DNA from: a virus
Reading direction: 5' to 3' (one strand)
Virus record (IMG/VR): IMGVR_UViG_3300050119_000091
Coordinates: 2,780 to 66,779 of that record
Length of the DNA stretch: 64,000 nucleotides
Made by a program: the position numbers and the translations under genes. Shown here in pieces: positions 47,402-51,860 of this stretch; position 1 is the stretch's first letter, and each line of letters starts with the position of its first letter. The notes beneath the pieces were generated by a model. It was not told the DNA's origin and did no database searches. It saw nothing but the letters and a program-made list of their open reading frames with translations.

Positions 47402-47595
47402 TAGTCGAAATTGAACTGGCGGTTGTGATTGTCCTATTGGCCTGGAGCCCCGTTGTCGAATGGCTGGAGGGCCGCAAGCCATTGCCTCCGACTCCGCAAG
47501 AGCAGGAACAGGCTACACTCGCGGCAGAGCACGCGGAATATCTGAAGATGCGGGCGGCGATTGAGCGGGAGAAAAGCCATGAAGTCAATTCTTAA
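47398..47595 (+). CDS. small membrane protein
   Basis: N-terminal TM; ATGA overlap. Confidence 0.55.
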   Translation: MIVEIELAVVIVLLAWSPVVEWLEGRKPLPPTPQEQEQATLAAEHAEYLKMRAAIEREKSHEVNS

Positions 47596-48013
47596 CTTCT
47601 GCCTGTTCGCAGGCGTCTCGATCTCTCTGTCGGCTCAACAGCCCGTCATCATCAAGGATCAGGGTGGTAGCGGAAACGCTGCTAGTGTAACTAGCGCGGC
47701 GGCGCTTAAGGTTGACAACTCGGCGGTAACGCAGCCAGTGAACGGCATCGGCAATGGGGCGGTGGTGTCGGGCCAGCAGGCTGTAACCGGAACTGCGGCC
47801 GTGCTTGCGTCCAACTCCATCAAGCAGGCTTGCTTCTCCGCGCTCTCAACAAACGTGATAAGCATATTCCTCGGCGCTTCGGGAGTCACTACGTCAACGG
47901 GTTTTGAAATGAAGCCGGGGACAGGAGTGTGTCTGCCTCTAACTAACACCAATTTGATTTTCGTTGTCGCGTCTACCACAGGAGCAACTATCACATGGCT
48001 GGCAACAAATTAA
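47579..48013 (+). CDS. signal-peptide virion-type protein
   Basis: [21 protein letters not shown]. Confidence 0.7.
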
Positions 48014-48609
48014 GACGATGGGCGGAAACGGCCGCTATGGCCGTCTGCGTTGTTGGCATATTTGGAATTATCAGCCAGGGGCTGCAAGGGCAGAATTACG
48101 GCAGCTTTACCGGAAGCGGCAGTATCGGCGCAACGGGAGTTACCGGAAGCACAGGGGCAACTGGCGTTACCGGGGCAACGGGGAGTACGGGAGCAACCGG
48201 AGCGACCGGCGCAACCGGTGTCACTGGAAGCACTGGCGCAACCGGGGCAACCGGCCCAACTCAGCATGTTATTTCATTTTCAGTTGATGGGCAGGGCGCA
48301 GTCCCTGCGGTAGGCGATATTCTCGTATATCCAACAGCCGCATTCGCCTGCACAATCACACGTATTGACATTAGCGGCAATCCTTCCGGCTCGATTACAG
48401 TTGACGTGTGGAAGCGGGCAGGCGCAATCCCCACGAGTGCTCAAAAGATAAGTGCTTCAGCTCCGTTGACACTTTCCAGTGCGCAGCTTGCGCAAAATGG
48501 CTCAATAAGTGGCTGGTCAACAAGTGTCAGCAGCGGCGATGTATTCGGGTTTTCCATTGCTACCGTTTCAGCGGTGACTAAGGTACTGGGGCAGATATGG
48601 TGTCAGTGA
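47995..48609 (+). CDS. signal-peptide collagen-like fiber protein
   Basis: ..[22 protein letters not shown] triplets; [19 protein letters not shown]-terminal domain. Confidence 0.75.
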
Positions 48610-50195
48610 AAAAGTTTATTCTCGTTTTCCTTATCGCTGCCGGTCAACTGTTCGCGGCTCTCCCCGCGTCTACGGTCTGGGAAGTCCGCACAGGCGGAAG
48701 TGATACCAATGGCGGGGGATTCGTCACTGGCGCATCGGGCACGGACTGGAGCCAGCAGAACGGCACGCAATACTCAGTCACGGATGGGGTGACCCTCGGC
48801 ACCACGACGATAACCAGTGCGACAGCATCGTTCGGAACCGACGTAGTTGGCAATATCATGTACGTGCAGGGCGGGACCGGGAGCATCACTGCCGGGTGGT
48901 ATTGGATCACAGCGCGGGCAAGTGCGACTTCGATCACAGTGGACCGTAGCGCGGGCCTGACCACTGGCACCGGGGTAACGCTGCATATCGGTGGGGCGCT
49001 ATTGAGTCCGGGGATCGCATCTAGCCAGATGGCCGTAAGCGGAATGATTGCGTACCTGCTAAATACTGGTTCTTCTGTATTCTCGATAACGAGCGCCACG
49101 AGCAACATCGCAGGCGGAACGATGTCTCAAAATTTGTCGAACATCGACAATATTTTTGTAGGTTACGCCACCCATAGGAATATATTTAACACAGACACGC
49201 CTCCAACGATTCAGGCAAATGTGGCATCGGCAGTTTTGACCAAGGGCGCCCGAAGCACTTTTTTTAATTTGATATTTGACGGAAATTCACAAGCCTCAAC
49301 CATACTAACTTCCGGTGCGTATTTCTATCGGGTGACGGTGCAGAATTTCGCTGCCGCATCAACTGCATCAACGGTCAATAGTTTTTTCATCGGATGCCTA
49401 GCCACAGGAAACAGCGCTACTGTTTTTCTTGGTGGCCTTGTCGCTTACAGTGAGGCGTATGGCAATACCGCAACTCCAATCAGCGCTGGGACAATCATAC
49501 GAACTTTTTCATACCTCAATACTGGAGCGGGTACGGATGGGGCCGCGAACGTAGCAAGCACAGTGGCTTTTGTGGACGGACTTACGTCAGTGGCGAACGG
49601 GCGACACGGCTACAATGCCGCAGCAGGCGGGATGCACCTTATCGAAAACAGCACACTGCAAAGCAATGCTGGCTTTGGTGTGGTCAGCGGCGGTACGACA
49701 CTGATCTCAAATAATAACGGGTTTTACAATAACGCTTCGGGTCCGGTCAGTCTTACGGCTCCAACCGGATATTCTTTCAACCCAATCACCCTCACTGGCA
49801 CGGCGTTTCCCGGGAGCACGCAAACACCGGCAACTACAACTACCGGTAGTACTTCGGGGGCAAGCACCGCCTTGACGGTGGGTTCCAGTACGGGAATCGC
49901 AGTTGGGCAGCTAATCACAGGAACAAACATCGCGGCGGAAACCTATGTCGCTGCCGTAAGCGGCACAGCGGTAACGCTGTCGATAGCTAGCACTGGAACA
50001 GTGTCAGGCAATGTAAATACGTACCCGGCTGTGTTAAGTCTCAACGCTCTTGCCAGCCAAGGTGCCGCTCTTCGCGCTGCTGCAATCCCGGCGCTCTTCC
50101 CGAGGGGTCTGACGCCGGATTACGCAGACGTGGGAGCAGTGCAGTCACAAGCGACAGCAGGTACCACTCAGTATTCATACGGGTACGCGCAGTGA
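48606..50195 (+). CDS. signal-peptide beta-helix (tailspike-like) protein
   Basis: [47 protein letters not shown]. Confidence 0.75.
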
Positions 50196-50250
50196 TCCGA
50201 TTCCTCCGCGCACTCTTCGCACTCATCGACGATCTGGACGGCCCACGCTC

Positions 50251-51267
50251 GTGAAACTCGCAGCACTCTGTCTTCTGCTCACTATTCCTGTATCCGCCGC
50301 GCTGATAGGGTCAGTAGCGTGGGACGGCCCAACGTCTCCGTCTATCAACACAACGAACGTCACATTGGCGTGCGTGTTCGCCACCGGTCCGGACCCGTTC
50401 ACTCCGGCAATCGCCGACAGCTACAAGAACGTCTGGCACCTCGCCGGAAAGGTTGGCAGTGGATCGCTCACATGTGCATACGGTGCGATCACAGCAGGCC
50501 CTGGGCACGCGGTTACGATCACCAACGCACCGGATGGCGGCGGATATGAGTATGTCTTCATGGCGTTCTCAGGGTTCACCGGCCCGGTAGGCCAGTACTC
50601 GCTCAATGACGACGTTTACGCGGACACGATCCAAGCCGGTCCGGTGACGCCGACAGGGGGTGGAGAACTGGTCATCGTGGGGCTGGACTCCGCGAACGCA
50701 GGACCGGCGCTGAGTATTGATTCCGGACTCACCATCGCGCAGAATATCTACAACACCGAATCAGGAGCAAGCGTTGCCTACTCCGCGACGGTGTCGGCCA
50801 TGCCAATGAACCCGACATGGAAGCTCACGTTGTCAAGTTTCGTCGGCGCACTTACTGCAACTTTCCCGGCTCTCGCGACGCCGACGCTCGCACCGATTAC
50901 GGCTCCGATGACGTGGCCCAATCTCCTGACCGTCACGGCGGCAGGTAGCGTCCTGACCATCGGAGGAGGCTGCACTGTCAGCTCGCCTTGCAATGTGCGG
51001 ATTGGCAGCACGGTCTATGCATTCACCTACCCGGTGACAGCGACCCTGGCTCCAAGCGACTCAGGAACGGCATACGTGTACATCGACGGTGCGACTGGAC
51101 TGACAATAGTCGGAAGCAATATGTCACCGACCTGCGCCGGTGGCTGCGTTGCGCAGGCCGGAATCACGAACTTCCCCACCGACTCATTACCCATTGCGAT
51201 CTGGACGGTCAGTAACGGTACATGGTCACCGGCGGGGATCGACGTCAGGGCTTTGCTGAGTCGCTGA
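50251..51267 (+). CDS. signal-peptide beta-rich protein
   Basis: MKLAALCLLLTIPVSA|A; paired Cys; FPTDSLPIAIW. Confidence 0.7.
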   Translation: MKLAALCLLLTIPVSAALIGSVAWDGPTSPSINTTNVTLACVFATGPDPFTPAIADSYKNVWHLAGKVGSGSLTCAYGAITAGPGHAVTITNAPDGGGYEYVFMAFSGFTGPVGQYSLNDDVYADTIQAGPVTPTGGGELVIVGLDSANAGPALSIDSGLTIAQNIYNTESGASVAYSATVSAMPMNPTWKLTLSSFVGALTATFPALATPTLAPITAPMTWPNLLTVTAAGSVLTIGGGCTVSSPCNVRIGSTVYAFTYPVTATLAPSDSGTAYVYIDGATGLTIVGSNMSPTCAGGCVAQAGITNFPTDSLPIAIWTVSNGTWSPAGIDVRALLSR

Positions 51268-51275
51268 AGGACACC

Positions 51276-51860
51276 ATGAAATTCGCACTTTTTCTGCTCA
51301 CCATCCCGGCATTCTGCCAGGTCATCCCGCAGGTCCACGTCTCCGCGAATCTTCTGTCATCGCAGACGACGGCCAGTATGTTCGGAAGATTGCCGAAGCC
51401 CTACAGCGCGGCGGCCGTCTCCGTGTGCAACGAAACCGCCGCGCCGGTGACGATGGCCCTGGCAGCCGTAGCGCAGAAGGTGGCCGTCACTGGCTACGTG
51501 ATGCTGCCGAAGGACGCCGCACTTTCCGTCATCGCAGCAGCGCAGGGTTCGTCGCTCGGCAGCAAAGTACTCCGGGGCTCGATTGCGGCTGTCCAGATCG
51601 CAGCAATCGCAGCGGGCTGGAGCACGTTGAGCGCGGTGGTAAAAAACACGCTGACATCGGCCGCGTTGGCAGGGGCGTCGGTGGTGAGCGTTCTGGGTAC
51701 GGCGATTCCAAGCCACGTATACCTGACGTTCGATCACGAAGCGCTTCCGGACCCGCTGGTCATTGCCGCCAACGGTTGCGCGTCGGGCGTTGTGATCGTC
51801 GAAGTGTCCAAGACCCCGGGGCTGTCGGTGGCCGTTCCAATGCCGGATGGAGGAAAATGA
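51276..51860 (+). CDS. signal-peptide protein with a hydrophobic central region
   Basis: AAGGA RBS; MKFALFLLTIPAFC|Q. Confidence 0.65.
   Translation: MKFALFLLTIPAFCQVIPQVHVSANLLSSQTTASMFGRLPKPYSAAAVSVCNETAAPVTMALAAVAQKVAVTGYVMLPKDAALSVIAAAQGSSLGSKVLRGSIAAVQIAAIAAGWSTLSAVVKNTLTSAALAGASVVSVLGTAIPSHVYLTFDHEALPDPLVIAANGCASGVVIVEVSKTPGLSVAVPMPDGGK

Follow-up and report, generated by a model that had tools for sequence, protein, structure and literature searches.

The 64,000-nucleotide stretch described here (the window) comprises bases 2780–66779 of a single 66,779-base uncultured virus record, IMGVR_UViG_3300050119_000091, the genome of a 67-kb phage. At the downstream end of its structural genes, directly ahead of the lysis genes, lie five consecutive open reading frames (ORFs), referred to as B, C, D, E and F (Table 1), whose products begin with presequences that are well supported, by their composition and their recurrence in relatives, as real export signals. 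Export of the block is highly probable, and the Sec-type signals on five neighboring late genes suggest that these parts probably mature outside the cytoplasm. C and D are well supported as proteins of the tail fiber or spike type, a collagen-like fiber and a depolymerase-like beta-helix respectively, and relatives of D occur both with and without the leader. The explanation as a whole, in which a late Sec-exported cassette occupies a variable host-specificity slot before the lysis genes and at least C and D dock on finished particles, we hold to be only just short of probable.

The five ORFs are all on the + strand and are tightly packed, with overlaps between B and C, between C and D, and between the stop codon of F and the start of the lipase gene. 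Each N-terminus opens with a basic n-region, continues into a hydrophobic core free of charge and has small residues at positions -3 and -1. Signals were called with a heuristic of our own and by reference to homologues, rather than with a dedicated predictor such as SignalP; it seeks a basic n-region, an uncharged h-region of about 7–15 residues, and small residues at -3 and -1. The pattern is present in B, D, E and F, and the core of C is longer, at about 17 residues. Ten of the 105 greedily called ORFs of the genome are positive, including B, C, D and E; F was not flagged because the ORF caller retained a longer ORF overlapping it. In simulations, a run of at least five among 95 genes with eight positives has a probability of about 9e-5. 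Glutamine (Gln) directly follows the predicted cut in B, C, F and a further protein of 927 amino acids (aa) described below, but not in D or E. The original prediction of five large late ORFs with signal peptides, three of them with Gln at +1 (B, C and F by the heuristic cut), therefore holds, and the presequences recur in relatives of D, of the C-terminal domain of C, of E and of F. By the lipobox rule, which places a cysteine (Cys) at +1, none of B–F has a lipobox; in F, Cys14 is preceded by P-A-F, with Phe at -1, and F homologues have at this place Ala or Gly followed by Gln, and no Cys. The mature parts contain two Cys in B, two in C, one in D, six in E, two in F and 20 in the 927-aa protein. 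The predicted emphasis on Cys pairs does not survive comparison, as even counts are no commoner in leader-bearing proteins than in the other proteins of the phage; parity, tried as a mark of export, is even in 5 of 6 leader-bearing and 12 of 18 other phage proteins, and is uninformative.

Two readings would remove the signals or their cleavage. In the first, the starts are miscalled and the hydrophobic stretches are untranslated upstream sequence. E begins with GTG and has no Shine-Dalgarno-like motif upstream, and such motifs are weak for D too, as this reading would have it; yet no in-frame ATG, GTG or TTG lies just behind the hydrophobic segment in any of B–F, so the possibility that the true starts lie downstream fails. 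The next in-frame start in D is codon 65, with none between codons 4 and 65, and its use would remove conserved residues; in F it is codon 53 of the ORF from ATG 51222, within the conserved region; and in B it is codon 60 counted from TTG 47561, or about codon 54 from ATG 47579. Presequences of the same n/h/c build but unrelated to one another are also seen in 12 homologues of D, 27 of F and 71 relatives of the C domain, and we consider miscalled starts extremely improbable. In the second reading the hydrophobic N-termini are uncleaved membrane anchors, of a periplasmic or surface structure or of a membrane assembly platform. It draws on a 65-aa transmembrane protein ahead of B and on C, whose stretch of about 17 residues follows three basic residues and is within signal-anchor range; judged by its sequence, this stretch may be a signal-anchor instead of a signal that is cut off. 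B, D, E and F, however, have short cores followed by small residues at -3/-1, the C-type proteins of two other loci (L035 and L057) have short, cleavable-looking signals, and the D presequence ends exactly at the N-terminus of leaderless relatives, which suggests removal. Anchoring of the block is very unlikely.

This property of D is the most informative feature of the block. A search at E up to 0.001 gave 795 database relatives of D, and the best 120 of these were examined; four were left out for want of the N-terminal motif, and among the 116 kept, query included, 13 carry a presequence. In an alignment of the 13 leader-bearing and 13 leaderless D proteins, each presequence stops at the residue after the leaderless initiator Met, and because the junctions coincide, cleavage would recreate the leaderless mature N-terminus. 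On a FastTree tree of the mature parts the leader trait needs nine changes, at least six of them forced by well-supported branches, and none of 500 shuffles is as low as nine (shuffled mean 12.5); the leader has thus been gained or lost many times. Because sister lineages make the same mature D from genes that encode a leader and from genes that lack one, both kinds of D probably end up with one and the same task, outside the cell and either on the particle or beside it.

The AlphaFold2 (AF2) model of D bears out the predicted beta-helix: it is a right-handed beta-helix with a separate N-terminal domain, modeled with a mean predicted local distance difference test score of 75.1 (mostly 76–97 per ten-residue block over residues 21–400, with 407–532 poorly modeled). 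Foldseek matches include phage capsule depolymerases, tailspikes and the bacterial epimerases AlgE and AlgG, the match to the Klebsiella K1 lyase 7w1c having a probability of 1.00 and E of 3e-5, although the template-modeling scores are low (0.15–0.32 in PDB and up to 0.40 in BFVD). Like D, 7w1c, the K64-1 depolymerase S2-4 (9k4a), LKA1 gp49 (4ru4) and CBA120 TSP3 (6nw9) combine a separate N-terminal domain with a right-handed beta-helix; they fold in the cytoplasm and, unlike D, to which their scores are in the low range of 0.15–0.32, have no signal. D itself matches no Pfam family at E up to 0.01, including Beta_helix (PF13229), which one homologue (P0061) passes with 27.5 bits against a cut-off of 25.9 and another (P0023) fails. 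Among D relatives the N-terminus is conserved and the distal part variable, and leaderless D genes are found after the tape-measure gene (L004) or just before the terminase genes (L009, L022) of otherwise unrelated phages. We also note a family of proteins of about 100–117 aa, forming two BLAST clusters, encoded just upstream of D-type genes in nine loci, directly so in L003, L007, L008, L013, L017, L019, L020 and L023 and about 300 bases upstream in L058. In L077 this small protein is seemingly fused to the D N-terminus, and the window has no such gene ahead of D. A role as partner or chaperone is conceivable.

The genes adjacent to D tend to share its leader status. D genes were located by tblastn with the D N-terminal domain, and the nearest same-strand ORF on each side was scored at 58 non-duplicate loci, after two partial hits had been dropped; eight duplicates and the locus of the genome itself (L092) were set aside beforehand. 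The D gene has a leader at 10 of these 58 loci. Signal-like adjacent ORFs number 9 of 19 beside leader-bearing D and 4 of 85 beside leaderless D (Fisher p=1.6e-5), and counted per locus the figures are 6 of 10 versus 3 of 48 (p=3.5e-4). Where a C-type and a D-type gene form a pair with readable N-termini, both have leaders in four cases (the window, L035, L057 and L045), C only in one (L038), D only in none, and neither in six (p=0.015). These sequence comparisons give good support to repeated gain and loss of the export signal, with the module and not the single gene as the unit of change. Three points count against this: the loci lack phylogenetic independence and were scored with our own heuristic, such that the effect sizes outweigh the p-values; a broad first test, covering all ORFs of 150 aa or longer that lie no more than 10 kb from D, gave 5 of 53 versus 15 of 255 (p=0.36); and L038 has a leaderless D between leader-bearing neighbors. 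The broad test was replaced by the adjacent-gene test with BLAST-defined D genes, which also superseded an intermediate regex version covering 20 loci. At L038 (7899–15261), the proteins flanking the leaderless D are of 343, 249 and 1314 aa, all leader-bearing, the 249-aa one with a C-type C-terminal domain.

C is fiber-like in its sequence. The predicted collagen repeats are present at residues 42–87, where PF01391 scores 29.1 bits against a cut-off of 27.2, and C has matches to tail-fiber PHROGs, including phrog_35197 on residues 114–198. Of 91 relatives of its C-terminal domain (92–204), 71 have a hydrophobic N-terminus, and several of the remainder are cut ORFs. In no fewer than 11 other loci, the gene immediately ahead of a D-type gene encodes the C-type C-terminal domain; with the window and L038 there are about 12 independent cases, one duplicate removed, and this recurrent adjacency marks C and D as a two-gene unit. 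The C-type proteins differ at their N-termini, and in L081 the C-terminal domain follows an N-terminus that we take to be tail-collar-like. A weak similarity links the C domain to an E-family member (P0122; 26% identity over 96 residues, E 0.003 in a single comparison), and a complex prediction with three copies of C 92–204 and D 21–145 scored 0.00 against a mark of 0.32, a result that says nothing either way.

The remaining members of the block are less clearly parts of a tail. F has 45 representative homologues, with a presequence in all 27 of those aligned, among which Q15, C51 and C168 are conserved in at least 90%. The F model has no PDB match by Foldseek at E up to 0.001, and its best VIA Z of 5.5 covers a helical hairpin only, from which no function can be read. 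E has 16 homologues that have the C-terminal domain alone in common, with C241, C247, C295 and C299 invariant or nearly so, and a hydrophobic N-terminus in 11; no E relatives were found in IMG/VR. The E N-terminal domain resembles, as an Atlas lead only, a module of viral proteins and of secreted multidomain proteins that are mostly from Acidobacteriota, and for B the nearest Atlas clusters, likewise only leads, are viral proteins of 114–135 aa that align from B residue 19–33 onward. The prediction of a block of fiber- or spike-type genes thus stands for C and D, extends loosely to B and E through these leads, and breaks down for F, whose homologues have bacterial chromosomal contexts. Its sequence relatives make F most plausibly a secreted protein of host type that the phage carries, and F, perhaps with E, is more likely a host-derived exported passenger than part of the particle.

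Taken further, the whole block could be host-derived cargo (morons) with no role in infection, made up of secreted bacterial genes picked up between the tail and lysis modules. In line with this, F is 61–71% identical to homologues in chromosomal contexts and absent from the viral collections searched, and the E N-terminal domain is like modules of secreted Acidobacteriota proteins. The C and D families, however, are overwhelmingly on phage-sized contigs and within structural modules, and the block genes are packed tightly or overlap within the late operon. A Pfam scan of 29 further ORFs, 27 of which lie outside the late operon, revealed neither integrase nor repressor families, many of these ORFs lacking any family, and a role in lysogenic conversion is accordingly without support. 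Cargo is a quite unlikely account of the block as a whole.

A small residue and Gln behind the hydrophobic core are found in 40 of 71 members of the C family, 28 of 32 of the F family and 9 of 11 of the E family, against a background of 0.19. The enrichment recalls the Q-rule, which its authors describe as specific to Bacteroidetes (PMC5837995). The host clues, which are leads only, point elsewhere: metagenome-assembled genomes with leaderless D relatives are labeled Planctomycetota, Gemmatimonadetes and Omnitrophota, one leader-bearing D homologue is labeled Verrucomicrobiae, and the gene contexts of homologues (loci L085, L090 and L091, with PSCyt/PSD1, DUF1501 and CarboxypepD_reg genes) are unlike Bacteroidota. 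The neighbors of the F homologues and the Atlas taxa would fit a host among the Acidobacteriota or the Planctomycetes-Verrucomicrobia-Chlamydiae (PVC) bacteria, and the sequences suggest that a habit like the Q-rule may exist outside Bacteroidota.

The closest cultured precedent is Cellulophaga phage phi18:3 (Pachyviridae, NC_021794), in which gp085, gp086 and gp087 are annotated as virion structural, structural and tail protein, respectively, from tandem mass spectrometry (MS/MS) proteomics. All three have signal-type presequences, with Gln after the heuristic cut in gp086 and gp087 and two residues downstream of it in gp085, and their genes, set apart from the main structural genes, immediately precede those for two small membrane proteins and the endolysin. 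Of the other eight MS/MS-annotated phi18:3 proteins inspected, seven have no leader score and gp120 a weak one only. These annotations indicate that leader-bearing proteins can appear in particle preparations, and they make it more plausible that exported parts join the particle at or after lysis. The resemblance to the block lies in consecutive large leader-bearing proteins ahead of the lysis genes, with Gln after the cut; the differences are that no sequence similarity was found (tblastn of GenBank phages with D and F) and that the host is a Bacteroidota, whereas the leads on the host of the block point elsewhere. We found no paper on the leaders of gp085–087.

A rival to particle docking accepts export but has these proteins as accessories that never join the particle, D being a polysaccharide depolymerase that is free in the periplasm or released, and B, C and E binding or scaffold proteins, which act on the envelope or exopolymer of the infected cell itself, before and at lysis, and so free progeny, destroy receptors on debris or block superinfection. 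The fold of D is also like that of periplasmic AlgG and secreted AlgE, its N-terminal domain is common to phages with unrelated tails, and the block adjoins the lysis cassette, F being translationally coupled to the lipase; all are in keeping with this. The exported exclusion lipoproteins Cor and T5 Llp are small and are encoded beside receptor-binding genes, and B–F are larger, without a lipobox, and have fiber or enzyme architectures.

Bacterial and prophage cases are also in keeping with it. WceF of Pantoea stewartii is a tailspike-like beta-helix glycanase with an N-terminal export signal that trims the exopolysaccharide of its own cell, although, unlike D, it is the product of a bacterial exopolysaccharide-cluster gene and uses a twin-arginine (Tat) signal for folded export rather than Sec (PMC7949094). 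Porphyromonas gingivalis phages likewise encode leader-bearing proteins, with signal peptidase I signals followed by Gln in accord with the Q-rule, that their authors interpret as envelope modifiers; unlike the block, these are prophage proteins of unknown function and not fiber-type proteins in a host-specificity slot (PMC10367356). Speaking against accessories of this kind, a protein with a task only after lysis could do without a signal, yet the leader of D has changed at least six times; C and D are modular and fiber-like, in a slot that varies among relatives as it does for receptor-binding genes; and the leader-bearing proteins of phi18:3 were, according to the record, found by MS/MS of particles. 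We regard exported accessories as doubtful but as a serious contender.

Other late phage proteins are known to use host Sec ahead of lysis, such as the Sec-exported or signal-anchor-release endolysins, for example Lys44 of Oenococcus phage fOg44 (PMC8878798); these differ from the block in being lysis enzymes rather than fiber or spike proteins, and the endolysin candidate here has no signal. What is already known is thus exported endolysins, leader-bearing Porphyromonas prophage proteins and a Tat-exported tailspike-like bacterial glycanase. Added here are the natural experiment of D with and without a leader, the recurrent leader changes, the concordance of neighbors, and F as a block member that is not an appendage. 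In the literature covered, which left out subscription journals and supplements, no paper was found on Sec signals or a periplasmic route of tailed-phage fiber or spike proteins.

The prediction that appendages are exported is sustained in its export part, by the presequences in relatives, the D junction and the concordance of adjacent genes. For the step from export to particle, the evidence must be set against several observations. Presence of any of B–F in the particle would be a prediction, as is cleavage of their presequences, the core of C being long enough for a signal-anchor. Phages whose tail modules are unrelated have the D N-terminal domain in conserved form, a distribution that particle anchors seldom show and that would suit a free enzyme equally. 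Detection of the phi18:3 proteins by MS/MS could come from co-purifying envelope material. Close F homologues (61–71% identity) lie beside PSCyt1/PSCyt2/PSD1 and DUF1501 gene pairs on bacterial-looking contigs, F relatives are absent from IMG/VR and GenBank phages in searches of both, and the E C-terminal domain is also present on contigs of 156 to 976 kb. With these in mind, incorporation of C and D, at the least, into particles is a tentative possibility, somewhat short of probable, and that they act as free or cell-bound exported proteins is a slightly more doubtful one. The alternative first proposed, a surface structure or receptor shield, is conceivable too.

Table 1. Genes of the variable slot, the lysis region and the 927-aa protein, in window coordinates.
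Feature	Position	Strand	Description
927-aa gene, 3' part	1–1701	-	starts outside the window (4480 of the full genome, G000); sixth leader-bearing protein, then Gln; Cys-rich N-terminal domain of about 250 aa
136-aa protein	46375–46785	+	last structural-operon gene conserved with G001; start of variable slot; 41% identity to 127-aa G001 ORF
A, 188 aa	46835–47401	+	no signal
65-aa ORF	47398–47595	+	one N-terminal transmembrane-like segment (18-mer hydropathy 2.05); charged C-terminal half; overlaps A stop and B start
B, 144 aa	47579–48013	+	presequence of about 20 aa, then Gln; 2 Cys in mature part
C, 204 aa	47995–48609	+	presequence or signal-anchor (about 32 aa); collagen-like G-X-T repeats; C-terminal globular domain 92–204
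D, 532 aa	48597–50195 (start 48597 or 48606)	+	20-aa presequence; N-terminal beta domain 21–135; right-handed beta-helix about 150–400; low-confidence C-terminal part
E, 338 aa	50251–51267	+	16-aa presequence; N-terminal domain 17 to about 225; Cys-rich C-terminal domain about 228–338
F, 194 aa	51276–51860	+	14-aa presequence, then Gln; bacterial-type secreted family, two conserved Cys; stop overlaps lipase start (ATGA)
Class 3 lipase	51857–52570	+	PF01764 60.2 bits vs cut-off 22, E 2.7e-16; phrog_21992; GHSLG at residue 138; no signal
Holin-like ORF, 97 aa	53158–53451	+	two transmembrane-like segments; 43% identity to ORF beside G001 lysozyme homologue
Lysozyme-like endolysin candidate	53581–54240	+	weak: phrog_7 E 7.9e-6; PF00959 17 bits, below cut-off 22.3; no signal

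The slot occupied by the block is variable between the phage and a related viral contig of 68.7 kb (G001), with about 51% identity in two structural proteins (1186 aa and 502 aa). Downstream of the G001 homologue of the 136-aa gene, the slot is filled by two unrelated proteins, 942 and 1120 aa long, each with a leader and then Gln, and no homologue of D was found in G001. In G001 (L073 14003–17365, - strand, and L093), the 942-aa protein matches no family; the 1120-aa protein has a TIG domain and a sub-threshold C-terminal match to Heparinase II/III. The 927-aa protein is 63% identical over residues 14–265 to an 879-aa leader-bearing G001 protein whose gene is inside the structural operon, and the remainder is unrelated; receptor-binding proteins usually show this combination, the N-terminus being conserved and the distal part divergent. 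Within the slot, A matches no family in Pfam or PHROGs, and the proposal that it is a signal-less paralog of B is rejected, the similarity not being significant (BLASTP E 0.078). The 65-aa ORF between them has no Pfam family; counting it, the run would comprise six membrane or exported products.

The lipase gene, translationally coupled to F, is the first after the block. The lysis genes are broadly as originally predicted, with a Lipase_3 protein, a two-transmembrane holin-like ORF and a weak lysozyme match following in turn, and no spanin-like pair was seen behind the endolysin candidate. Esterases of the LysB type take the outer-membrane step of lysis in mycobacteriophages, and by analogy the lipase might do so here.

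The late operon runs rightwards from about 20.4 kb to 54.2 kb of the window, and the leftward arm contains DnaB-type helicase, SNF2-like helicase, methylase and HNH genes recognized with Pfam. Few late-operon proteins match Pfam or PHROGs and most structural genes stay without a name, with a weak major-head match at 28835–30139. There is no sign of a separate transcription unit for the block in scans of 46000–54600, where predicted promoters (6, against 3.7±1.7 in shuffles) and terminators (5, against 7.6±2.7) are not above shuffled sequence. Against GenBank phages, tblastn of the capsid candidate, D and F gave no match, and blastn of an 8-kb stretch gave a single match, to the collagen repeat only. 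No tRNA genes were found.

Several other features were seen along the genome. Homing-type endonuclease genes lie within the structural operon, one of the Endonuclease_7 type with NUMOD3 (30170–31003, + strand), with a homologue at the corresponding place in G001, and one with HNH_3 (41780–42256, + strand). In the head-gene region, an 88-aa ORF (31000–31266, + strand) without a Pfam match above cut-off has an N-terminal Arg-Arg followed by Gly-Phe-Leu and a hydrophobic stretch; by its twin-arginine-like N-terminus it could carry a Tat-type signal on a phage protein. At the right genome end, small minus-strand ORFs form the pairs 60882–61202/63409–63786 and 62938–63141/63163–63387 with identical N-terminal or internal stretches, which suggests local duplications.

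How the block would work can be set out as follows. B–F would be made late, together with the structural genes, as a late-expressed cassette in the variable slot that closes the structural operon and borders the lysis genes. The exported proteins would cross the inner membrane unfolded by Sec and be cut by signal peptidase I, the cut in D leaving the same N-terminus as in its leaderless relatives. Folding would be periplasmic. In that compartment, oxidation could act on the conserved Cys pairs of E and F as well as on the numerous Cys of the 927-aa protein, and an N-terminal Gln could cyclize. The exported proteins would meet the particles built in the cytoplasm only once the holin, endolysin and class 3 lipase have opened the envelope, and would afterwards serve outside the cell as receptor-binding or polysaccharide-cutting gear, with at least the C–D unit most likely docking onto finished particles. 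A bolder form, in which the whole host-recognition gear is built in the periplasm, oxidatively folded, capped with pyroglutamate at exposed Gln and fitted to fiber-less particles as the envelope opens, and in which the same holds for a recurrent minority of uncultured relatives, is unlikely.

In textbook tailed phages every part of the particle is folded and assembled in the cytoplasm. If the bolder form were true, assembly of a tailed phage would be split over two cell compartments and completed at lysis. Fiber and spike genes that repeatedly gain Sec signals together with their neighbors imply either a second assembly compartment with docking after lysis, or phage-exported envelope enzymes derived from fibers, and either outcome would alter the prediction, expression and engineering of receptor-binding proteins, with regard to disulfides, N-terminal processing and periplasmic expression. 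The D family, with the same mature protein made with and without a leader, is a natural experiment on this question, and phi18:3 is a cultured system in which it is testable.

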